Assembly: GCA_963737635.1 (NCBI GenBank)
Contig: CAVTTL010000001.1
Location: 1,024,001-1,088,000 of the forward strand
Reading direction: 5' to 3'
DNA: 64,000 nt
From: an uncultured Methanoregulaceae archaeon
Lineage (GTDB): Archaea > Halobacteriota > Methanomicrobia > Methanomicrobiales > Methanospirillaceae
Shown here: piece after piece, positions 29,670 through 43,359 of the stretch
How the letters are laid out: every line of letters starts with the position of its first letter
Numbering within the stretch: the first letter of the stretch is position 1
The notes under the pieces: generated by a model
The model's input: the letters and a program-made list of their open reading frames with translations, nothing else
Told to the model about the DNA's origin: nothing
Database searches by the model: none
Made by a program: the position numbers and the translations under genes

Positions 29670-32031
29670 ATGCAGAGACCCGATCCCGGCCCGGGCAAAG
29701 AGGCGATGCAGCCGTCTCCTGACGGGGCCGGGACGGTCTTTCTTTTCGATCTCTCTGAATGGCGGGGACAGCTCGCCCGGAGTATCGCCCGGAACAATAT
29801 CGGCATGAGGAGCAGTGAGATTGCTCTGGCTGTCAACCGAATCCTGTTCCGGTTCTGTATTCTCGCCATCGCGGAAGATCGCGGCCTCATCACCCCGGGA
29901 AAACTCCGGTGGATCGCCGAGGCTGAGGAGAGCAATCTCCGGCTCGGGGAATTTTTTGCGGACACCGGCGATCCCTGGGCCGGGACTGATGGAACAAAAG
30001 ACAGTAATCACCGGCACAAAGCCGTCCCGGGAATACCTCCTGTGATCGATGACGAGATCATCAGATCGATCGCCACCCGATTCTCCTCCGTGGATCGGCC
30101 ATACGATTTTTCCCAAATCTCCCTTGAGGACGTTGCCGGGGTGATCGACCAGTATCTTGCCCGAACCATCAGGCGGTCTGCTGCTCACCAGGCGGTCGTT
30201 GTCGATCGGCCGGGTGCCGGGATCGGCGCTGCCGTGGACCCGGAGATCTTAACCTATGCAGCGACAAACACTCTTGCCGCCGCCCGGGCCAGCCGTCCTC
30301 CGGAAGAACTGCTCCCGCTGCGCATCCTCGACCCCGCGTGTGGTGCCGGTGCCCTGGTACTCCGGGCATTTCACAGTCTTGTCCGGGATGAGAAGCACAC
30401 ATTTGCTGAGAGAAAAGAGATCCTGGAGCACAGTCTCTTTGGCCTCGATATCGATTCTCATGCAGTAGCGGCTGCCCGAATACTGCTTTCCTTTGGTGCC
30501 TGTGAAGGAGAGGACATCAAGACGCTGTCGGGTGGTTTTTTCGCGGTGTTCAGCGATCTGCTCCACATACTGTCGGCCACTATCCGGTGCGGGAACGCGC
30601 TTGTTGGCCCGGAGATTGCAGATGATGAATCCTGGGCGTTCTGCCCGGCGCATGAACGCCACGCGATCCAGCCCTTCGATTGGCAGGAGGTCTTTTTTGA
30701 GATTTTTGCTCCCGGCGGGTTCGATGTCGTGATCTGTTGTCCTCCCGAATGCCCGGTACCAGAACGTGAATGGCTGCAGCGGTATTTCCAGCGACATTAT
30801 GCTGTCTACGATGCCGGGACGAATCTCTCGGCGTTTTATATCGAAAAGGCACTCAGTCTCTTGCGTCCCCAGGGCGTCTTGGGTTTTGTGACCGGTGCCT
30901 GGTGGCTCCATGCAAAGGCCGGTGCACCGGTACGGGAGCTGCTCCTGACGCGGCAGATCGAGGAGATCCTGTTCTCCGGAGATAAAGAGGGCAGCTCCTG
31001 TTTTCTCCGATTGACAAATACTCTTCCCTCGCACCCGTTTGTGGTACGGCATGCCGAATCGGTTATGAGATCAGCGGAACCTGTGGGATTTCCTGTCGAC
31101 CCCCATGAGCTGTCTGCCGGGGGCTGGACGTTTCGCGATACCCGCAGGGAACGGGTGTTTAAGAAGATTTCCTTGGCCGGGACCCCCCTTGAGACATCAG
31201 TTCTCGGCGGGATCCAGTATGATCAGGGAAATGAACTCCCTGAAGTACTTGTCATCGACGCTCTCCGGCGAAAACGGCTGGTTCGCGGGGAGAGCCGGTG
31301 CAAAACCCTGGTGCGCCCGTACATTTCCGGGGAGATGATCGGGAGGTACAGCATATCATCACCCCGGAAATACGGCATTTTTATCCCGCGGGGATGGACC
31401 GGCCGCCATGCTCCGGCGCCTGGTAAGGAGTGGCAGTGGTTCAAAAAACGCTGCCCGGGCATTGCCCGCTATCTTGAAGAGCATAAGGCAGTCCCCAACA
31501 ACCGGTCGTCACCCGAGGAATATTGGTGGGAATGTACCGGCAGTCCGGATACACGGCAGGGGGAGAAAGCCCGGATTGTTTTTCCAGCCCACGTTTTTCC
31601 TCCTACGTTCACGATCGGAAGCGGCCGGGCATTGCTCGGCGGTCACACCGGGGTTATCGCCTCCGGGAGCCCGTACCTGCTTGGGCTCCTCAACAGCCGT
31701 CTCGCCGCATTCGTATTTGCCAGCCTTTCCCACAATCGCGATCGGTCCGGTGATGAATACTCGGGAATAGTTATCGGAGAGTTTCCGGTCTACACACCGG
31801 ATTCTGGACGATCCCCTGGATAAGGCCCGGTATGATCGACTGGGGACACTGGTAACCGAGATGCTTGATCTGCACCGGCATCTCAGCCGCGCAACGACCG
31901 ACAGGGAAAAACAGATTATCCGACAGGATATCGACTCTGTCGAAAAGCAGATAGATTCACTGGTCTATGGGATCTACGGGCTTTCGGTGAAGGATATTGC
32001 GGTTGTAGAATCATCCTTTGCAACGATGTAA
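29670..32031 (+). CDS. Degenerate Type IIG (Eco57I-like) R-M methylase/TRD protein lacking a nuclease domain (frameshift near 31803)
   Basis: ILDPACGAG motif I, LFGLDID, IRCGNALV, GGFDVVICCPPE in place of NPPY, YLLGLLNSRL. The C-terminus continues in another frame to IDSLVYGIYGLS...TM* (stop 32029-32031). Confidence 0.75.
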
Positions 32032-33317: not shown

Positions 33318-34242
33318 ATGTCTCAGGATCGCCAGCTCCAGCTGGTCACCAGTGTGATGATATCGGCGGGATTCGAAGTATCCGAGAAGTTTACCCTTCG
33401 TCCGAGAAGTTTCGATCTCATCGCACGCAACAACGGGACACTGCTTGTGATCAAAGTCGTGACGCATATCGACTCGGTGAGCGAAGAAGCGGCGTTCGAT
33501 CTTGATGTGATCTCACATCATCTGGGTGGGGTGCCTCTTATTGTTGGTGAACGTGCCCGGGAGGCTGAGCTCGAACGGGGTGCGGTGTACGTTCGGTACG
33601 GCATCTATGCGATCAGCGTCTCGACTCTGTACGATTATTTTGTCGAGAAGATCCCCCCGCTCGTGTACGCGTCTCCCGGCGGTCTGTACGTGAATATCAA
33701 CGGTGACGCCCTGCGGGAGCTCCGTGAGGGGCAGCGTATGTCGCTTGGCGATCTGGGGCAGGTGCTTGGGGTGTCCCGGCGCACGATCAGCAAGTACGAG
33801 GGCGGGATGGGCACGACGCTTGAAGTTGCTATCCGGATCGAGGAGTATTTCAATACTGGTGTGGTCGAGTCCATCGATATTGTCCGCCGCGAACCTGCCG
33901 AATCCGGGCATGAGGAGCCAAAGAGACGACAGGGCCCGGGTATTCCTATCGAATTCTTTGAGCAGGCTCGGGATGCAGCTTCACACGCTCCGGGGCGCAC
34001 CGTTCCAGGCTCTCCTCACGTTCGACAAGCATACCATCCTTACGGGTTACGGCCCGGCGCAGAAAGTGGTCAAACGTGCCGCTCTTATCAGCAACCTCTC
34101 GAAGATCGCAAAGAAGCACGCGATGTGTATTATCACCGACTACCATCACGAAAAGAAGATCGGCCGGACGCTCGTGATCGGTGAGGAACGCCTCCACGAT
34201 ATCGCAGATGGTTTCGAACTCCTCGATATGTTGGGCGACTGA
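33318..34242 (+). CDS. Archaeal HTH transcriptional regulator (COG1395-like; frameshift near 33962)
   Basis: RSFDLIAR, GAVYVRYGI, ASPGGLYV, HTH LGVSRRTISKYE; C-terminus APFQAL...KRAALISNLS in ORF 33703..34242. Confidence 0.85.
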
Positions 34243-34323
34243 TTTTTTTTAAGTCTAGTATACATTTTCAGATTTGCTGATCTCGCGTGTTCATCATCGC
34301 AGCAGTGCGATAAAAAAAGAAGA

Positions 34324-34929
34324 TTATGCTTTTTTCATGAATTTGGGGGAATTTGCAAGAAATGTTAACGCTTTCTCTTTGTGGACGTATGCGGGGTACC
34401 ATACGGTAAAGACGATAGCGATTACCATAAAGACCCATTTGAGATTGTCCAGAAATACAAGGCCGAGATCAGGTCGTAACACGAGAAAGCCGTCAATTGC
34501 AGCGCCGAGGGTAAAGGCAAGTGCCCATACCGCGGTTATGATATAATTTACCCGCATGAAGAGGGGGCTTTTCGCTCGTTCGGGATCAACCCCCTCTCGT
34601 GAATACTGGAGGGTGAAAGGGAAATGGAAAAGGATGGTAGCCCAGCAGACTACGGCGATTACCAGCATAGAAAGTGCCGCGAGGTATTTTGCGAGATAGT
34701 ACTGATGCAATCCAATGATCGGGATAAAGAACGCGACGAAAAACACGAGCGTTACCACGGCCAGGATATATCCTTTGAGCAGTTGCCGGTAACTGAGAAC
34801 AATAGTGAGCGCAATGGCGACAATAAAAGCAAGGGTCAGACTCATCAGGGGATTTCCAAGCGGAGCTTCAGCAATAAGTGCAAAGGCAATCCACGGAATG
34901 AACGCGGTAAAAAGCGATATCAGGTTCAT
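34324..34929 (-). CDS. Hypothetical membrane protein
   Basis: About 6 TM; PFTLQYSRE...FMRVNYIITAVW motif. Confidence 0.75.
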   Translation of the reverse strand: MNLISLFTAFIPWIAFALIAEAPLGNPLMSLTLAFIVAIALTIVLSYRQLLKGYILAVVTLVFFVAFFIPIIGLHQYYLAKYLAALSMLVIAVVCWATILFHFPFTLQYSREGVDPERAKSPLFMRVNYIITAVWALAFTLGAAIDGFLVLRPDLGLVFLDNLKWVFMVIAIVFTVWYPAYVHKEKALTFLANSPKFMKKA

Positions 34930-35206
34930 GCCATACAGATAGAATTCGCGGATGGATAACTCTTTTGAAGTGTTTTTTCCCTTCTATTGGGAAATGAGCA
35001 GATTAAACGATTTTGGGAGAAAGTGTATAGCTAATCGTGACAGTGCCTGATTAATAGAGATGATAAAAATGGGATCGGTAGCATTCCTCAGTACGAGATC
35101 AGGATGAAGATCAAACCTTAATTAAGCCGGACGTTACTTCAACAACCCTGAAATAACGCCCATCCTTCATGAGTTAGTTACCCTATCCGCATTACCCGTC
35201 GCTGAA

Positions 35207-35812
35207 ATGGAAACGGATTTCGCAATAGATTCCACAGGATTCAGGACAACAACTTTCAGCGAATACTGCGGGATGAAACACGGACAGAAGAAACAGCACA
35301 AATGGATCAAGGCGCATATGGCAACCGGTGTAAAGACCAACATCGTAACCGAAATTGTGATAACTGCCGATAATGTCCATGACACTAAACCATTCAGGAC
35401 ACTTCTGAACGGGACAGCAAAGAACTTCGATATCAAGGAGATATCAGCAGACAAAGCATACTCATCACGCGATAACCTCGCCGCAGTAAAAGAAATCGGC
35501 GCAAATGCTTACATCCCTTTCCTGAAAACTGCTACCGGTAAATCACACGGATCACCGCTTTGGAACAAGATGTACCACTACTTCAAAATGAACCAAGAAG
35601 AGTTCATGGAACACTACCATAAGAGGAGCAACATAGAAGCAACCAACGCGGCGATTAAAAGGAAGTTCGGAGAGACTTTGAAATCAAAGAACTCCGTTGC
35701 TCAGGTAAATGAATTGCTTGCGAAGATCATCGCTTACAATCTAACGGTAGTAATCCACGAGATGTACGAGAATGGAATCTCACCGGACTTCTTACAAATA
35801 AAAAGATCTTAG
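35207..35812 (+). pseudogene. DDE transposase (IS5-like), N-terminally truncated
   Basis: FAIDSTGF, WIKAH, ISADKAY, YHKRSNIEATNAAIKRKFGE, KIIAYN. The frame extends upstream (YFNNPEITPILHEL) without a start codon. Confidence 0.8.
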
Positions 35813-35818
35813 TAATTT

Positions 35819-36292
35819 TTACTTGTGGTTATATTTCGATAAATTTTCTTTTAATTCCGGATTTCCCCGAATTATAAGATTGTAAAGTGTTGTCCAATAT
35901 TCTAGTTTCACTTCACTTCGACCAAACATATTCATTTTAACAAATTGTGATCCTTTTAAGGAAACATTCGCCATAATTTCTTCGTAAGTTATCGGATCAA
36001 TGTGTATATTTTCTGTAATTCGTTCAATATCTGCAAAATAATCCGATTTTTGCTTTGTCCACTCTCCTGCACCCTCCAACTTCGCAGTGCTCGTAACTTT
36101 AAAAATAGATTTAATAGCCCCATGAGGTTTTGTGTAATAAAATAAAATTAAATCGTTTGGCTCTACGGTTTTACGGACACTCCATCCAGAATGTTTTTTA
36201 GCACTATCCAACTCCTTACGACGATCCTCATGTGCACCGCGTTTATCAATACCAACCGACATGATCCATATCTTTGACATATTTCGCTCCAT
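35819..36292 (-). CDS. EVE/PUA-like domain protein
   Basis: WSVRKTVEPNDLILFYYTKPHGAIKSIFKV and PITYEEI pattern. Confidence 0.65.
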   Translation of the reverse strand: MERNMSKIWIMSVGIDKRGAHEDRRKELDSAKKHSGWSVRKTVEPNDLILFYYTKPHGAIKSIFKVTSTAKLEGAGEWTKQKSDYFADIERITENIHIDPITYEEIMANVSLKGSQFVKMNMFGRSEVKLEYWTTLYNLIIRGNPELKENLSKYNHK

Positions 36293-36486
36293 GTGAAATA
36301 TATCGCAATCGTTTTAATAATTGTTCGGATTTTGATCTCTGCACCTAAAGTCCGGTGTCTGCACCTAAAGTAGGGTCAAAAAGTGACTTTGGGTGCAAAG
36401 CCCCCCTCTAGAGGTTCTGGTGCGTCTGCGGTTGATCCACCGCGCTCGCGGTTGGTGGTGCGTGGCGGTTGGTAGGAACGCAGAGA

Positions 36487-37608
36487 TTAGAAACCATCAA
36501 AGAATTGACTTTTTCTAAATCCGATGACACATCCATCTGGATATGTTCCATAGCGGCTGGTTCGATTGGATACTATTATCCGATTGCTATCTTCTAAAAT
36601 CTTTAAACTTCTTGACCACATTTGAGGGAATGGGGTATGCTCAATACAAAATTCTTTTAATTGGGTTGTTGTTAGGGATCTTCCTATCAAAGATTTGTAA
36701 ATAAATTCTGCCTCATCCTCAAATTTTGAATCCTCACAATAAGATACCAAGAAACTTTGACCGGCATCTGTTATATCGGAAAAACTAAAAGTTCCTCTCG
36801 GATCAACTTTGAGCATTGCTCTTTTCATATACGACAATCCATCAATGTGATTTGAGGCAAAAAATAGATGATAGGAGACATTATTCATTTTGTCAACCAT
36901 TTCAAAGGATTTGACATATTTTGAAGCTGTTTTGAGTTGCATATGGTATAATTCAATTATTTTTGATAGGCGTTCATTGGGGTTTCTAAGTGGTCTAATG
37001 TTTCGCCATTCCGATGTTCCAAACAATCCATCAAATGTTTCCTCTCTTGGATCGTCCTTAGCTTGGATAAAACGATTAATTCCATTATAAGCGAAATTAA
37101 TGAATACCTCACAGCTTCGGAATGCGAGAATTCTTTCGATTATGTAAAATGGCAATCCACTATATCCAAAAGGATCAATAAACGCAAATGTAGGAGCTGA
37201 GCTTTTACTCTCTTTATCGAGAGCCGCCAACAAAGCTTTCATTGCAGTTTCAAAATCCGCATGATATACATCCACCTTAACATTTTTTGGCAAATCTGGG
37301 AATCGCTTTTTTATTGTCCTTTCTAATATTTCCGCCCTTGTTGCGTCTTGTTCAATAAAAATAAAAACAAATTCTGTAGATCCATTGCATAATTCATGCG
37401 AATGCCCTAAAAGACATCTCAGTGCAACTAATGGTGAGCCATCCTCCCCATTTTCATATTTACCGGGACCGGCAAAACCATCGATATAAACAAGTCTTTT
37501 GTTATGAGCTTTTGATAAAATAGGATACCACGCTTTCAGGTATTCTTCTAAAATTCTATGTTTTGCCTCAGTATGTGGTTCTTTTATCCAAACGGCGGAT
37601 TCCGGCAT
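36487..37608 (-). CDS. tcmP: Three-Cys-motif partner protein (TcmP; SAM-MTase-like fold plus C-terminal wHTH)
   Basis: HTEAKHRILEEYLKAW, YIDGFAGPGKY, GSPL, FAFIDPFG, EVFINF, YHLFFASNH. Confidence 0.88.
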   Translation of the reverse strand: MPESAVWIKEPHTEAKHRILEEYLKAWYPILSKAHNKRLVYIDGFAGPGKYENGEDGSPLVALRCLLGHSHELCNGSTEFVFIFIEQDATRAEILERTIKKRFPDLPKNVKVDVYHADFETAMKALLAALDKESKSSAPTFAFIDPFGYSGLPFYIIERILAFRSCEVFINFAYNGINRFIQAKDDPREETFDGLFGTSEWRNIRPLRNPNERLSKIIELYHMQLKTASKYVKSFEMVDKMNNVSYHLFFASNHIDGLSYMKRAMLKVDPRGTFSFSDITDAGQSFLVSYCEDSKFEDEAEFIYKSLIGRSLTTTQLKEFCIEHTPFPQMWSRSLKILEDSNRIIVSNRTSRYGTYPDGCVIGFRKSQFFDGF

Positions 37609-37624
37609 TATTATTTTATAAATT

Positions 37625-38398
37625 TCAATAGGATAATAAGTCTTTCTTGATGTAATGCGACTTTCCATATTTTTTTAACTTTGCCGTAACTTTAATCCTA
37701 AAATCTCGCCAATCAATGGTTTTTGCTTGGGCGTTATAATTTAATTTTCCCACTTTGTAAAAATCTACAAAATCTTTTGTTAAGTCGATCAATTTGAGAG
37801 TTTGCTCAGGTATCCAAACGGGTTCCAGTGATACATATGTCGGGATACCCATATCATGCGCTTTTTTCAAAGCCTCAATCCTTTCATTTGTTGGTGCTGC
37901 TCCACCCTCAATTTCCTTTCTGTATTCTTCATCTGTAAAAACTAACGTAGCACCATATTCACTTAATTCGGGGCTTTTCGACAGTAAATCAAAATCCCTT
38001 TCTGATCGTTTTCCGCCTTTGGTCAATATTGAAACTTTTAATTTATGTTGGTGTAATATCTGGATCGCTTGCCTACTGAGTTGTTGCTTAACATCCAGTG
38101 GTTGATATGGGTCTGTGGTGAAAGATAACAAAATCGTACGTTTTTCGCCAATGCTCTCTAAATAAGCAGCATCATCATAGAATTTATTAATAACTCCCGT
38201 TCTGGGAGTTGGTTTGTAAAAATTCTCTTTTGTCATATACAGGGTTGCAGGGGCGTAACAATACGAGCAACGGTGACTGCACCCCCGGTAAAGGTTTGCT
38301 GCTAATTCACAATATTCACGCGCTTTCCCTCGCGGTTCGTATATTATTGATGTTTTTAGCCGGTTTTCTTCTTTCGAAACCAACTGGCAGCTTTGCAT
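37625..38398 (-). CDS. Radical SAM protein (SplB-like)
   Basis: GCSHRCSYCYA CxxxCxxC motif, SFTTDPYQP, ILTKG, YVSLEP. Confidence 0.88.
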   Translation of the reverse strand: MQSCQLVSKEENRLKTSIIYEPRGKAREYCELAANLYRGCSHRCSYCYAPATLYMTKENFYKPTPRTGVINKFYDDAAYLESIGEKRTILLSFTTDPYQPLDVKQQLSRQAIQILHQHKLKVSILTKGGKRSERDFDLLSKSPELSEYGATLVFTDEEYRKEIEGGAAPTNERIEALKKAHDMGIPTYVSLEPVWIPEQTLKLIDLTKDFVDFYKVGKLNYNAQAKTIDWRDFRIKVTAKLKKYGKSHYIKKDLLSY

Positions 38399-38479
38399 TT
38401 TTATTCTCACCAATTAAAAAATCTATATGGATATGATACTATATTGATCTTCCGGTGCATGGGGTGAAAGTGTAAAAAG

Positions 38480-38704
38480 TCACTCGGTTTTAAGAGTGTT
38501 GTTTTTCGTTTCTTTTTCCTTTCGTGTTGTCCAAGCTTTCTTTGCGATTTCACTTCTTCTTTGTTGTTTTGTTTCTATCCATAACTTGATTGCTTCATGC
38601 AATGCGATTGAAAGGTTTCCCCGTTTCATTCCCAACTCTTTAGCAACCTCCGTTCTGAATTCATTTTCAAGGTCATCTGGAAGAATAACGTCAATTCTGC
38701 CCAT
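38480..38704 (-). CDS. Ribbon-helix-helix DNA-binding protein
   Basis: GRIDVILPDDLENEFR...KRGNLSIALHEAIKLW. Confidence 0.8.
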   Translation of the reverse strand: MGRIDVILPDDLENEFRTEVAKELGMKRGNLSIALHEAIKLWIETKQQRRSEIAKKAWTTRKEKETKNNTLKTE

Positions 38705-38777
38705 AGGTTTTCACAAATAGTATAATGTCTCTCTCCGTTTATACACTTTTCCCCTTAACCACAATGGATAAATACTT

Positions 38778-38795
38778 TAACCACATATGTGGTTA
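38778..38795. promoter_or_regulatory. Perfect 18-bp palindrome, candidate RHH operator
   Basis: TAACCACATATGTGGTTA plus a half-site TAACCACA at 38756-38763, in the divergent RHH/transposase intergenic region. Confidence 0.6.
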
Positions 38796-38830
38796 TGTGT
38801 ATAAACCCGTCTGTGTGTTTAACCAATGAG

Positions 38831-40024
38831 ATGATGAAAATGATACGGCAACTTACCAACCCACGAGAATTAAAAGCACTGGCAATGCTCAGCGAACCCG
38901 ATACCGTACTCCAGACTGGCAAAGACGAGTGGGATGTTAGATCGCAGTCGAAAAACGCGTATTATCAGGTTGCCCGAAGTTACAAAGATCGGAATGCTCG
39001 TATGCGAGGACAGGCAACATGGACATGTTCATGTCCTGATTTCCAGACTCGCAACGTCATATGCAAACATCAGCACGCCGTGATGCTTTCCTTAAAGATT
39101 GCCGGTGATGTTCAAGAACAGAGTGCTCCAGCCGCCATTGCTGAGGCAGAACCAAAGATTACCTGCCCTTCATGCAAGAGCGAAAATATTAAGAAATGGG
39201 GAATCCGGAAGACCCGATATGGCACTACTCAGCGGTACGCGTGCCACGAATGCAATCATACTTTTGTCGTTGACAAGGGGTTTTGCCGGATGAAACATTC
39301 CCCTGAATCAATCACACTTACCCTGGATCTCTACTTCAAAGGATTGTCGGATCGGAAGATTGTGGATCACCTTAAACAATTCCACAATGTTACCGTCGTT
39401 CACACTACAGTTATTCGATGGATTCACAAATACCTGAAACTCCTGTCAACCTACGCTGAGAAGTATAAAGTCGATGCCGGGAATATCTGGCATTGCGATG
39501 AAACAACCGTTTTTATCAAGAAAGAAGGTGAAAAGAAGCACTATCAGTGGATATGGAATTTGATGGACGCAAAGACCCGCTATCTTCTGGCATGTCAGGT
39601 TACTGAGCACCGGTTCGTAAAGGATGCCCGAAAGCCCCTGAGCAAGGCAAAAGCGATGGCAAAGAATATACCGGATGCGATTGTGACGGATGGCCTACAA
39701 GCATACCGAGATGCAATTAAGGCTGAGTACTATGGGCTAGGGCGCATCCAGAACCCACACATCAGACTGAAGGACTTTGAAACCAAGCCGAACAACAACA
39801 TTCTCGAACGGTTAAACGGCACGTTCCGAGAGCGCACAAAGGTAATGCGGAGCCTTGATAGCGCAATCGGTGCCGGAGAGTTTGCCGCTGGTATGCAGAC
39901 GTATTACAACTATATCCGACCTCACATGGGGATCGACGGAATGACGCCGGCACAGATGGCAAATATCCCGATTAATCTGATGGGGAACCGATGGGAAACT
40001 ATGATTGGGCTGGCGGTAAAATAG
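38831..40024 (+). CDS. IS6-family DDE transposase with N-terminal SWIM finger and Zn ribbon
   Basis: CSCPDF..CKH (SWIM), CPSC...CHEC, WHCDET, IVTDGLQAY, NNILERLNGTFRER, YYNYIRPH. Confidence 0.92.
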   Translation: MMKMIRQLTNPRELKALAMLSEPDTVLQTGKDEWDVRSQSKNAYYQVARSYKDRNARMRGQATWTCSCPDFQTRNVICKHQHAVMLSLKIAGDVQEQSAPAAIAEAEPKITCPSCKSENIKKWGIRKTRYGTTQRYACHECNHTFVVDKGFCRMKHSPESITLTLDLYFKGLSDRKIVDHLKQFHNVTVVHTTVIRWIHKYLKLLSTYAEKYKVDAGNIWHCDETTVFIKKEGEKKHYQWIWNLMDAKTRYLLACQVTEHRFVKDARKPLSKAKAMAKNIPDAIVTDGLQAYRDAIKAEYYGLGRIQNPHIRLKDFETKPNNNILERLNGTFRERTKVMRSLDSAIGAGEFAAGMQTYYNYIRPHMGIDGMTPAQMANIPINLMGNRWETMIGLAVK

Positions 40025-40031
40025 AATATTA

Positions 40032-40517
40032 TCAATCTGTTTTTTGTTGGGATTTGAGTTTGTCCTTCACATATGCAAGTTCAATTAAATCGAGCATATC
40101 TCCCCGATCAGAGCTCAAAATAGGGAACGTTGAATATACTAACTGAATGAAGCGGTTCCAATCATATTGCTTTGTACTGTTAATCACAAAATCCAACATA
40201 TTTTTTTCGTCTATCGGTATATTAATTGGATAGTTTTCGTTGGACAGTTTAATCAGTGTTTTTTTATGACCAAAAGAATTTTGAGTGTTTTCGATTTCGA
40301 AAATGGATGGGTTATCTTTTGCACAATTATAAATATCCCATACAAACGGCCCAAAATTATTAAATTCCCATTGGATACCAGTGATTTGTTTTTTATTTTT
40401 TAGGGCAAATTTCCAATCGGCAAGATACACAAGTTTTGTTAGACGCGCATTGGACAATTCAGATTTGTGGGGGTAATTTTTAAGAAGATAAACCAATACA
40501 TCAACCAATTTGCTCAT
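40032..40517 (-). CDS. Panacea (DUF4065/SocA-like) domain protein
   Basis: RLTKLVYLADW...ITG..W..NNFGPF. Confidence 0.85.
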   Translation of the reverse strand: MSKLVDVLVYLLKNYPHKSELSNARLTKLVYLADWKFALKNKKQITGIQWEFNNFGPFVWDIYNCAKDNPSIFEIENTQNSFGHKKTLIKLSNENYPINIPIDEKNMLDFVINSTKQYDWNRFIQLVYSTFPILSSDRGDMLDLIELAYVKDKLKSQQKTD

Positions 40518-41422
40518 TATACATCCTGTTCTAAGTTCTCTTCTTCAGATTCCCAATTCTCACCTAAATATGGATTAGGGAGCTCTAACCTTAAAATTAT
40601 TTCCTTACATATATTAATCTGTTCGGAGTCCCTGAATAAGCCTTCTAATTCTCTTTTTGTGAAACGGGTGTTTTTCGTAGACTCTACAATAAATATTGCC
40701 TTTGGGTGGTGGTTTTCTCCTATCCTATAACCATAAATTAGTGGGGGTTTCATTGAAAATAACTCAGCCACTTCACGAGGAATATGCTCTAAAGTCTCTA
40801 ATGCAGTATAATATTCCTCTAAGGCTCGAATGGGATCTGGGTAAATTTTAAAGTATTCACCATCATTCCAAGCATGGCTTATTGCTCCCTGATCTGGGGG
40901 GTACTGATGTCTACGTACTGCATTATAGATAGGATTCGCTGAATATCGAGCGATAGGAAAGAATCCCGCTTCATCAAATACGTATAAGCTTATACGATCT
41001 GTTTTGTGAGTTGCGCCACCAAAATCGAGAATGCAATCTCCAATGTACCTATTTAGAAATTCAACAATTTCTTTGATGGTGTCCTGATGGAGTTCATCTT
41101 CTCCAGTAAGTCCATCAACCTGATCTTTTAAGTCTTGGTTTTCCTTTATTACATCCTTAAGTCTTTTTTTGTGCTTGTATGACAACCATACAATTGCAAG
41201 AGATAATACGATTAGAATAATGCCGCCAATTGCAATTTCAATATTAAAAACCGATGAAGTTGCCTTTGTAATGTCTGCCTTTGAGATATCTCTTATTAAG
41301 TCATAAAATATCGAGGAGAATACCGAGAAATAGATTCCGGTAATCGACGAAACTATTAGGACGGGTATTTCAGAATAATCCGTGAGCCATTCTTCGATTA
41401 TTTTGATGTATTTCCAAACCAT
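40517..41422 (-). CDS. Hypothetical protein: two TM helices, coiled coil, GAF-like domain
   Basis: Two hydrophobic segments, LKDVIKENQDLKDQV, DRISLY...RYSANP...QGAISHAW. TAATG overlap with the Panacea gene. Confidence 0.7.
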   Translation of the reverse strand: MVWKYIKIIEEWLTDYSEIPVLIVSSITGIYFSVFSSIFYDLIRDISKADITKATSSVFNIEIAIGGIILIVLSLAIVWLSYKHKKRLKDVIKENQDLKDQVDGLTGEDELHQDTIKEIVEFLNRYIGDCILDFGGATHKTDRISLYVFDEAGFFPIARYSANPIYNAVRRHQYPPDQGAISHAWNDGEYFKIYPDPIRALEEYYTALETLEHIPREVAELFSMKPPLIYGYRIGENHHPKAIFIVESTKNTRFTKRELEGLFRDSEQINICKEIILRLELPNPYLGENWESEEENLEQDV

Positions 41423-41703
41423 TTTTGAGGTTGTCCATATTTTTAAATTATATCGCAAATCTGAGTAGCTGTTGGGAATATAAAAAGAAAATGTATTGAA
41501 ATCGGTTTCATATTGTATTAAAACACAATCGGTCATTCATAGCACCATCAAAAAAGTGCATTGTTGCCTTGATCGCGCGAAACCAACCGCGATGCACCAG
41601 TACAGGTGAAATGCACCAAACAACCGACAACGCACCAGCACCCCTCTAGAGAACCATTATATAGAACCACAAACCAATTTTAGTGCTAAAAGTGGTGAAT
41701 TTT

Positions 41704-43359
41704 ATGTCGCAACAACTTGGAGGACAACCAATTCTTATTCTTAAGGAAGGTACCAACCGTACCCGAGGCCGTGACGCCCAGGGTATGAACATCACCGCTG
41801 CAATGGCTGTTGCCAGTGCAGTAAGGACCACGCTCGGCCCCAAGGGTATGGACAAGATGCTTGTCGATACCATCGGCGATGTCGTGATTACGAATGATGG
41901 TGTCACCATCCTCAAGGAAATGGACATCGAGCACCCGGCCGCAAAGATGATGGTCGAGGTCGCAAAGACCCAGGATGACGAGGTCGGCGACGGAACTACC
42001 ACTGCAGTCGTTATCGGTGGGGAACTCTTAAAGAAGGCCGAGGCACTCCTTGAACAGGACGTACACCCGACGGTTATCGCCCACGGCTACCGTATGGCGG
42101 CTGAGAAGGCGCAGGCGCTGCTCAAAGACATCGCGTTCGATGTCAAGTCCACCGACAAGGCACTCTTAAAGAACATCGCCGGCACCGCAATGACCGGCAA
42201 GGGCGCTGAGGCAAGCAAGGACAAGCTCTGTGACCTCGTGGTCAGGGCCGTCACCATGGTGACTGATGCTGACGGGACTGTCGATATCGACAACATCAAG
42301 GTCGAGAAGAAGACCGGCGGCAGCATCGAGGACTCCGAGATTGTTGAAGGAGTTCTCATCGACAAGGAGCGCGTGCACCCGTCAATGCCAAAGAAGGTCA
42401 CCAACGCAAAGATCCTTCTTCTCAACGCAGCGGTCGAGTTCAAGAAGACCGAAGTCGACGCTGAGATCAATATAACCCACCCCGAGCAGTTACAGGCATT
42501 CCTCGACGAAGAGGAGCGCATGGTCAAGAATATTGTCGAAAAGATTGTCAAAAGCGGTGCAAACGTCCTCTTCTGCCAGAAGGGTATCGACGACATCGCA
42601 CAGCACTACCTTGCAAAGGCCGGTATCTTCGCCGTCCGCCGTGTCAAGAAGAGCGACATGGAGAAGCTTGCCCGGGCAACCGGTGGCAGCCTCGTTTCAA
42701 GCATTGATGCGATCGGCAAGGAAGAACTCGGTCATGCCGGTGTTATCGAAGAGCGCAAGGTCTCCGGAGAGGAGATGACCTTTGTCGAGCAGTGCAAGAA
42801 CCCGAAATCGGTCTCCATCATTGTCAAGGGCGGCACTGAGCATGTTGTCGACGAGCTCGAGCGCGCCATCCACGACGCACTCCGCGTTGTCGGCGTCGTT
42901 GTTGAGGACAAGAAGGTCGTCGCCGGCGGCGGTGCACCCGAGACCGAGCTCTCGCTCCGGCTCCGCGAGTACGCGGCAACGGTCGGTGGCAAGGAACAGC
43001 TCGCCATCGAGGCATTTGCAGTCGCGCTCGAGATCATCCCGCGAACCCTTGCAGAGAACGCAGGTCTCGATCCCATTGACATGCTGGTAGAGATCCGCTC
43101 AACCCATGAGAAGGGCAAGAAGAACTACGGTCTCAATGTCTTCGAAGGAAAAGCAGTCGATATGAAGGCAGCCGGTGTTGTTGAGCCCCTCCGTGTCAAG
43201 ACCCAGGCAATCTCCTCAGCTGCAGAAGCCGCGATCATGATCCTCCGCATTGACGACGTGATCGCCTCTTCCAAGTCCCCCTCTCCGGCACCCGGTGCCG
43301 GTGGCATGCCGCCTGGAATGGGTGGCATGGGCGGAATGGGTGGCATGGGCGACTACTAA
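41704..43359 (+). CDS. ths: Thermosome (group II chaperonin) subunit
   Basis: [26 protein letters not shown] tail. TATA-like TTATATA at ~41657. Confidence 0.98.

Follow-up and report, generated by a model that had tools for sequence, protein, structure and literature searches.

An archaeal family of IS6-like cargo transposons that appears to insert in a fixed register before promoter TATA boxes

Introduction

Insertion at a set distance from promoters is described for mobile elements of bacteria and yeast. TnGBS/ISLre2 (p-MULT 3) and ISKra4 elements, some of which carry cargo, insert 15-17 bp upstream of sigma-A promoters, and members with near-symmetric ends insert in both orientations (PMC3942029). 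For TnGBS and its relatives the same source describes circles in which the spacer is 6-10 bp, and for the archaeal ISH6 it suggests only an AT-rich preference (PMC3942029). In yeast, the Ty3 integrase is positioned by TFIIIB with contacts to TBP, as seen by cryo-electron microscopy (bioRxiv 10.1101/2021.07.27.453949). Insertion sequences (IS) often lie near promoters in general, a fixed register not being reported in the available text (PMC9208149). The subject here is a 5.2-kb IS6-like cargo element in a window of 64,000 nucleotides (contig CAVTTL010000001.1, positions 1,024,001 to 1,088,000, assembly GCA_963737635.1) from an uncultured Methanoregulaceae archaeon, and the family to which it belongs.

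The affinity of the element to IS6 depends on how that family is drawn. In the broad ISfinder sense, IS6 elements combine an IS6/IS240-type DDE domain with K/R after the E, short terminal inverted repeats (TIRs) with GG tips and a cTGTt-like motif, and an 8-bp target duplication (PMC7986276). All of these are found here, the family end consensus opening with GGTTCTG. The broad sense also describes compact elements of 0.7-1.76 kb in which the transposase gene takes up almost the entire element, whereas members of the present family span 2614-11015 bp. The strict IS6/IS26 sense demands an E-DH---K or E-SH---R signature, DD(33-34)E spacing and a score above the curated NF033587 cut-off, and with it go copy-in cointegrates and conservative integration at targeted sites (PMC6807381). 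In the window transposase, E324 is followed by RLNGTFR without H, the D285-E324 gap is 38 residues, and the NF033587 score is 114.8 bits, under the cut-off of 125. The first seven bases of the family end consensus equal the published bacterial consensus GGTTCTG(TTGCAAA), and the mean agreement over 134 ends is 9.5/14.

Long IS6 members with an N-terminal zinc finger are known from Clostridial clades h/i (VII/VIII) (PMC7986276; PMC6807381). The single passenger-carrying IS6 in the review is ISDsp3, a transporter IS (tIS) (PMC7986276). A tIS holds its passengers within one pair of IS ends together with one transposase, which describes the present family. An earlier note on this DNA had held that IS6 elements are typically under 1 kb and move passengers by means of paired copies or cointegrates; ISDsp3 is an earlier case of an IS6 with passengers. 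Promoter-anchored targeting by IS6/IS26 is absent from the available parts of PMC7986276 and PMC6807381. No description of TATA-anchored archaeal transposition or of this cargo family was found in the literature, by a search that did not take in ISfinder, TnCentral, two older archaeal IS papers or supplements.

The family works like TnGBS/ISLre2/ISKra4 and like Ty3 and is a member of neither. Like TnGBS/ISLre2 it inserts at a set distance before a core promoter element, but those elements are bacterial, encode a Mutator-like (p-MULT 3/4) transposase and use the -35 element as landmark, whereas the present transposase is IS6-like and the landmark is the TFB recognition element (BRE) and TATA box, held to a one-base register. 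The likeness to Ty3 lies in a DDE-type integrase, a general factor that contains TBP, and precise, harmless insertion. Ty3, however, is a eukaryotic long terminal repeat retroelement that inserts near the start sites of RNA polymerase III genes, whereas the present elements are DNA transposons upstream of the BRE for which a contact with the factors is proposed. TFB is also homologous to Brf. TFB is the archaeal homologue of TFIIB (PMC9133787). Short archaeal IS6-like elements of the ISH14/ISH29 group (PMC6807381, Table 5) have a related catalytic domain and an 8- or 9-bp duplication, and in the samples analysed here they too lie upstream of TATA-like cores; they differ in being about 700 bp long, in lacking cargo, SWIM finger and zinc ribbon, and in a weaker signal, the distance from tip to TATA core being 18-19 nt as against 13-14 in the present family.

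Insertion sites relative to the TATA box

Loci with related transposases were drawn from genome contigs (75 loci, from the best 80 of 87 matches), from metagenomes (78, from the best 80 of 532) and from the genome of the window itself (4), 157 in all. Elements were sought by GG tips, TIR identity of at least 12/16 and an exact flanking repeat, the TIR sequence being otherwise free. Complete elements are present in 70 of the 157 loci, many of the remaining loci being short contigs, and 67 of these elements are non-redundant. At a TIR identity of 13/16, a target-site duplication (TSD) of 8 bp is returned for 58 loci, one of 6 bp for 10, one of 5 bp for 1, and lengths of 7 and 9-12 bp for none.

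Judged from their flanks, most family members sit at a fixed distance, 5 bp upstream of a promoter TATA box, whatever the duplicated sequence. A TATA 7-mer starts exactly at +6 beyond the duplication in 47 of the 67 elements, against none at +5 and one at +7. Between +4 and +8 such a 7-mer is found beside 51 elements (27 on the left, 25 on the right, one on both). Either element orientation is used. Other 5-nt windows hold 0-8 elements, and composition-keeping shuffles give a mean of 6.7 and a maximum of 13 for +4 to +8. The duplicated 8-mers comprise 61 distinct sequences among the 67 elements. Base counts beside the duplication reveal an A-rich, BRE-like patch at +2/+3 followed by TTTAWATA, a pattern matched by the described BRE-TATA layout (PMC2396416). 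Once a false hit (L137) is dropped, the targets fall into 22 promoter clusters, 18 with the exact +6 register, and the register recurs in 6 of 11 distant homologues (<60% identity). A co-oriented open reading frame (ORF) follows the TATA box in 27 of 34 testable targets, compared with a fraction of 0.30-0.32 for the 7610 TATA 7-mers in the genome, 1099 of which have the BRE-like A's.

Three chaperone promoters take 27 of the 51 TATA-anchored elements. By names given from the translated sequences, the target genes presumably encode a thermosome (16 cases), a second thermosome (6), a CDC48-like protein (5), an ArsR-like regulator (5), a small heat-shock protein (3) and TFB (2). The TFB cases are L125 and L133, two distant archaeal bins in which the element stands at the promoter of TFB's own gene. 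A CTAAC-N5-GTTAG-like box that resembles the HSR1 site occurs at 13 targets in 5 clusters, compared with 29 of the 7610 genomic 7-mers.

The thermosome promoter

In the window, the gene downstream of the element is taken to be a thermosome gene (group II chaperonin), a name given from its sequence. Its 5' part is present in 107 of 108 genomes of the genus, and the upstream region was aligned in the 29 best-scoring of these 107 relatives, one of which was too short, leaving 28 informative. The site is occupied in register in 10 and empty in 18. A family end lies exactly 13 bp (8 + 5) before the TATA box in the occupied relatives although their 8-mers differ; in the empty ones the upstream regulator gene ends just before the promoter. 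On the thermosome tree, occupancy must have changed 7 times, well-supported branches forcing at least 4 of these changes, and both element orientations occur at this promoter. The earlier note had proposed to look for relatives with an empty site bearing a single copy of the duplicated 8-mer; no such site is seen in the 28 informative relatives, the 18 empty orthologous sites carrying other 8-mers. By sequence comparison, insertion leaves the host promoter whole and sites are reused, in both orientations.

Elements also stack. The far side of 24 of the 51 TATA-anchored elements abuts another element end, and 27 have no neighbouring end. At the window site the stack extends from the regulator stop at 34242 to 41650 and includes the end of an IS5-like element, the tip of which, at 36402, would be 16 nt from the TATA box without the window element. 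Since this is the register found independently for its own family (see below), the IS5-like element likely arrived before the window element. The left end of its remnant at 35120..36292 was looked for and not found. In one of 7 sequencing runs (X2), a contig covering 34244-41651 passes the duplication into another family end, which reads as a newer insertion on the TATA side. A joint that skips the element, as an empty site would give, is seen in none of the 7 runs, whose contigs show presence only.

The duplicated 8-mers within stacks (36403-36412 in the window; L081, L105, L162 and L179) are often C-rich on the end far from the TATA box, and those of empty sites are T-rich; the C-rich 8-mers may be the terminal CC of earlier elements, caught where a later insertion fell 1-2 bp off. 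An Eco57I/TaqI-type restriction-modification gene (29670-32031), apparently split near 31820-31861, lies about 4.5 kb before the window stack. Compared with the window, contigs of several runs have a 1-base deletion at 33965, a position within the upstream regulator gene that is split in the window, and G>A at 37199; the difference at 33965 suggests an assembly error in the window.

Other transposase families

The same landmark appears beside other transposases. A family with SWIM and DDE_Tnp_1 (IS5-like) domains forms cargo units of 2.8-4.7 kb with 9-bp duplications; intact members in the window's genome lie at C1:978781-982455 and C1:169806-173932 (L234, L235) and have GGCTTTGCAC ends. From 14 IS5-like loci, 5 were dropped (4 without a pair of ends, 1 near-duplicate). 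Beside the 9 remaining elements, a matrix derived from the IS6-like targets has its maximum at a single offset, a height reached in 0 of 2000 shuffles, and the BRE/TATA anchoring lies 2 nt further out than in the IS6-like family. The SWIM regions of the two families are 29% identical over 98 aa. Two IS6-like cargo elements without SWIM (transposase 286-290 aa, 9-bp TSD) also sit at +6. These elements, at approximately L259:2806-8089 and L260:3014-6222, have GATTCTG ends, measure 5.3 and 3.2 kb, come from two genomes of another family and are inserted at the promoter of a nifH-like operon.

Short IS6 elements give a shifted and weaker pattern. Only 1 of 34 short IS6 from the same phylum has the TATA 7-mer at +4 to +8; they were withdrawn as a clean negative control when a shifted TATA-like peak appeared. 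Among 28 copies of the haloarchaeal type, a YTTWW core lies 17-20 nt from the tip in 12, the best 4-nt window holding 13 and the shuffle mean of the best being 2.45. A replicate of 50 loci, less 20 without a usable end pair and 1 duplicate, finds the core in 11 of 29 held-out copies (shuffle mean 1.4, maximum 6). Of the approximately 700-bp IS6-like copies in the haloarchaeal-type genomes (L253-L255, L262-L286 and L299-L348), about 40% stand 18-19 nt before a TATA-like core. IS4/IS5-type controls in haloarchaeal-type hosts show no peak (best window 3/24), some of their ends being misplaced by 1-3 bp.

Proposed mechanism and alternatives

The landmark is probably the TBP-TFB-DNA complex on the promoter, recognised by the transposase. 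This reading is drawn because few real promoters are used among thousands of matching sequences, and because three transposase types share the landmark in different registers. The transposase would bind the paired motifs at each element end and make its cut immediately before the BRE of the target; the promoter would stay intact by virtue of the duplication copy next to the TATA box. With the promoter kept intact the site would be reusable, and new elements would land between older ones and the TATA box. Recognition might proceed by protein contact or by bent DNA; the SWIM finger is not required. The element probably moves as one unit, and a circle, a cut-and-paste or a cointegrate route are all possible, the 67 elements with matched duplications fitting simple insertion and resolved cointegrates equally. 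Heat-shock promoters would be preferred since TBP-TFB can be kept on them by a repressor in the absence of polymerase; Phr is reported to block polymerase with TBP and TFB still bound (PMC9133787). The host genome encodes three TBPs (C1:54538-55056, 1737374-1737892 and 2106445-2106966) and one TFB (C1:721604-722608), a set that is relevant to which factor could guide insertion.

A wider proposal, on which doubt slightly outweighs belief, is that archaeal DNA transposons evolved a Ty3-like tether to TBP-TFB more than once. Under this proposal IS6-like and IS5-like transposases would dock on the factors at promoters that are strong or poised by a repressor, with insertion directly before the BRE, chaperone promoters would act as reusable, polarised docking sites that build defence islands cassette by cassette, and short haloarchaeal IS of the ISH14 group would follow the principle in a shifted register.

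Several observations weigh against a promoter-anchored rule and its reading as docking on TBP-TFB. The TATA pattern was set after the flanks had been inspected, so the count over 67 elements is not blind. The strict pattern is missed by 16 of the 67 elements, 4 of them inside stacks and several with degenerate boxes, and a clear TATA at +6 is lacking in L111, L222 and C1:425105-429100 of the window's own genome. The sites are not independent of one another, 16 being at one orthologous promoter, and the locus sample is biased to close relatives. Of the 26 short paired GGTTCTG ends in the same genome, none has a duplication and 3 have a TATA, and the signal is missing from six copies of short IS6 in G439 as well as from most copies of the ISH17 type. 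Its presence in the IS5-like family too had made SWIM an attractive candidate for the only targeting module, an idea rejected in view of the SWIM-less L259 and L260 at +6 and of short IS6 without SWIM. In run X4, a contig at depth 2.5, absent from the other six runs, joins 41640 to 36403; this fits a circle whose spacer is 8 bp, but it is a single contig, and a copy in tandem would look the same.

Direct readout of the BRE/TATA sequence, or of its intrinsic bend, at a fixed distance from the active site and without a host protein would account for the strong conservation at +2/+3 and +6 to +13 and for the rigid offset expected of a tethered DNA-binding domain, and a protein partner is nowhere shown in these data. 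This alternative is nevertheless unlikely. The genome offers 7610 TATA 7-mers, 1099 of them BRE-like, and about 30% stand before an ORF start, against 27 of 34 targets; more than half of the anchored elements (27/51) crowd on three chaperone promoters; long IS6-like, short IS6 and IS5-like transposases use one landmark in different registers; and the motif equals what TBP and TFB read.

The stacks might instead have arisen mainly by IS26-like conservative, end-to-end targeting of resident ends after a few old promoter founders. IS26, IS1216 and IS257 target resident copies (PMC7986276), and the 24 anchored elements that abut another end fit such a route. It is very unlikely here, given the 27 anchored elements without a neighbouring end, newcomers that stand on the TATA side, differ in ends and cargo and have a fresh 8-bp duplication, the 22 promoter clusters used, and the scattered occupancy of the thermosome site, empty in 18 of 28 relatives. 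A loose bias to open, AT-rich upstream DNA combined with selection for promoter-sparing copies is less probable still. Insertions upstream of a core promoter would be harmless and persist, and all data come from surviving insertions, but selection would allow many positions further upstream, yet the peak is one base wide (47 at +6, 0 at +5, 1 at +7), and ordinary IS4/IS5-type elements in haloarchaea lack it. That a heat-shock repressor (Phr/HSR1-like) and not TBP/TFB is the tether is the least credible, for although chaperone promoters dominate the targets and 13 carry the CTAAC-type box, the commonest target (this thermosome promoter) and the TFB or SUI1-like promoters have no box, only 5 of 22 clusters have one, and the offset is fixed to the TATA box instead.

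The transposon family

Among the 67 non-redundant elements the median size is 4778 bp. The transposase is at least 60% identical in 56 of them; the remaining 11, under 60%, are from other archaeal groups (bins of Bathyarchaeia, Thermoplasmata, Aenigmatarchaeota, Nitrososphaeria, Euryarchaeota or an unclassified archaeon). Position 8 of the end consensus is variable (A 60, T 44, G 30 of 134 ends), and an internal motif copy occurs in 43 of the 134 ends (shuffle mean 10.6), with a 38-bp spacing in 25 of the 43. The earlier note had proposed a class of unit transposons with widely separated ends and interchangeable, defence-like cargo, and the complete loci with their 8-bp TSDs and diverse cargo bear this out. 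The opposite case, TIRs immediately flanking the transposase gene, is not seen: no compact form below 2 kb occurs among the 86 loci with the end motif on both sides (134 full-length loci). Promoter-anchored target choice and stacking, absent from that note, are the more important features.

The 67 elements hold 439 ORFs in 249 clusters, of which 201 are singletons, and 72 ORFs fall in the transposase cluster. The biggest cargo cluster is a DNA methylase (19 ORFs in 16 elements). A Pfam scan of 150 of 153 cargo representatives gives 51 with a match. In PADLOC, 23 of 99 larger cargo representatives are matched at E 1e-10 or better, mostly by restriction-modification, with further matches to dGTPase, SoFic and candidate systems. 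In most elements a small DNA-binding protein of AbrB/MazE, DUF2080 or zinc-ribbon type, varying in fold, is encoded in the slot divergent from the transposase. The earlier note had credited the window element with its own ribbon-helix-helix regulator; a weak match exists here (Table 1), and the trait does not extend to the family, the cluster being confined to 2 of the 67 elements. Palindrome arms of at least 7 bp precede the transposase in 28 of 67 elements, compared with 82 of 670 shuffles.

A scan of the window's genome turns up 319 candidate ends, of which 2 pairs that span at most 40 kb share an 8-bp duplication: the window element and C1:425105-429100 (3996 bp). A further complete element of 2769 bp lies around C1:277207-278379. 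The same genome has 26 paired short ends of GGTTCTG type (69-124 bp), clustered in accessory regions; examples of such inverted pairs are C1 71136-71228, 1748113-1748204, 2140097-2140186 and 2230198-2230290.

Features of the window element

By these comparisons the element is an intact, single-transposase cargo transposon of the archaeal IS6-like family (Table 1). Its imperfect 22-bp TIRs are identical at 18 of 22 positions and lie directly inside the exact 8-bp duplication CCTCTAGA, an 8-mer with 9 occurrences in the genome when both strands are counted. The motif TGGTGCRT-N2-3-CGGTTG has only 4 copies in the whole 2.46-Mb genome, all at the two ends of the element, where the second copy is 38 bp inward of the first. 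The paired motifs are likely transposase-binding sites. The GC fraction is 0.39, compared with 0.52 for the main contig. The repeats, the internal motif copies and a single SWIM, zinc-ribbon and DDE transposase with cargo on both sides had been described in the earlier note; the sequence comparisons and profile matches agree on each.

Table 1. Coordinates of the element and its surroundings within the window.
Feature	Position	Strand	Evidence or remark
IS5-like remnant: 5'-truncated DDE_Tnp_1 transposase (+, to 35812) and EVE-domain passenger (-, 35819-36292)	35120..36292		
End of older IS5-like element	36337..36402	-	Stacked at thermosome promoter
Left TSD copy	36405..36412	.	Exact match to 41643-41650
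Left end: TIR 36413-36434 and second motif copy 36456-36471	36413..36471	+	38-bp spacing
Cargo TcmP, three-Cys-motif partner	36487..37608	-	TIGR04474 E 4.5e-66; PDC-M30A E 1e-62
Cargo radical SAM protein	37625..38398	-	PF04055 E 3e-17; no PADLOC match
Putative ribbon-helix-helix regulator, 74 aa, divergent from transposase	38480..38704	-	RHH_6 E 0.008, below cut-off
Perfect 18-bp palindrome in the regulator-transposase gap	38778..38795	.	Inferred operator
Transposase, ~394 aa, likely ATG at 38840	38837..40024	+	SWIM finger, zinc ribbon, helix-turn-helix, DDE
Cargo SocA/Panacea-domain antitoxin-like protein	40032..40517	-	PF13274 E 3e-16
Cargo membrane protein, putative C-terminal GAF-like domain	40517..41536	-	No Pfam match over cut-off; Atlas 0.96-0.98
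Right end: second motif copy 41584-41599 and TIR 41621-41642	41584..41642	-	Motif/TIR match
Right TSD copy	41643..41650	.	Last bases overlap upstream edge of putative BRE
Host promoter, intact: BRE-like 41651-41655, TATA box 41656-41663	41651..41663	+	Insertion landmark
Host thermosome (group II chaperonin) gene, name presumed	41704..43359	+	ORF; driven by target promoter

Profile searches of the transposase detect SWIM (E 6e-6), an InsA/IS1595-type zinc ribbon and DDE_Tnp_IS240 (PF13610, E 6e-14, over the cut-off). The catalytic residues are D221, D285 and E324, numbered from 38837, and R331 is also conserved; across 87 aligned relatives both D are invariant and the E is at least 90% conserved. 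The best NCBIfam match is transpos_IS6 (E 4e-33), IS256 being far weaker (E 3e-8), and no ISLre2-type model is among the 12 profile matches. Close homologues are labelled Methanoregula. In Atlas, archaeal or viral members make up 70-100% of the nearest clusters; at ranks 13 and 15 are two clusters of SWIM-IS6-like transposases with 63% viral entries among labelled members. A scan of viral contigs for relatives gave 282 pattern matches, of which 0 were confirmed. The transposase tree suggests that the long and SWIM-less forms group apart from short IS6; it is a weak tree, with low supports, two rows absent and one row (L269) a wrongly picked endonuclease.

The search for a solved structure related by sequence to the transposase found none, the best matches (E 0.07) being capsid proteins and due to chance. 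An AlphaFold2 model from a 20-sequence alignment is poor (pLDDT 58, pTM 0.33). The predicted complex of the transposase with the host TFB core and one of the three host TBPs scores 0.00 and is counted neither for nor against contact.

Among the cargo, TcmP resembles component A of the PADLOC candidate system PDC-M30, and the radical SAM protein is likely its partner. The membrane protein likely has a C-terminal GAF-like domain, as its Atlas neighbours hint: the nearest clusters are bacterial, and GAF is found on 27-34% of members in some of them.

Implications

The pattern amounts to a landing rule for a widespread archaeal transposon family. It suggests a route by which restriction-modification and other defence genes gather harmlessly beside housekeeping genes, and it would extend promoter-anchored transposition, known from TnGBS/ISLre2 and Ty3, to the archaeal TBP/TFB machinery. 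That machinery can be rebuilt from two small proteins in vitro, making the tethering question directly testable. The signal beside short haloarchaeal IS6 elements indicates that a tractable host may already hold a test system, and Haloferax volcanii has matches to the IS6 model. A safe-site transposon with a capacity of 5-11 kb could also serve the engineering of methanogens.

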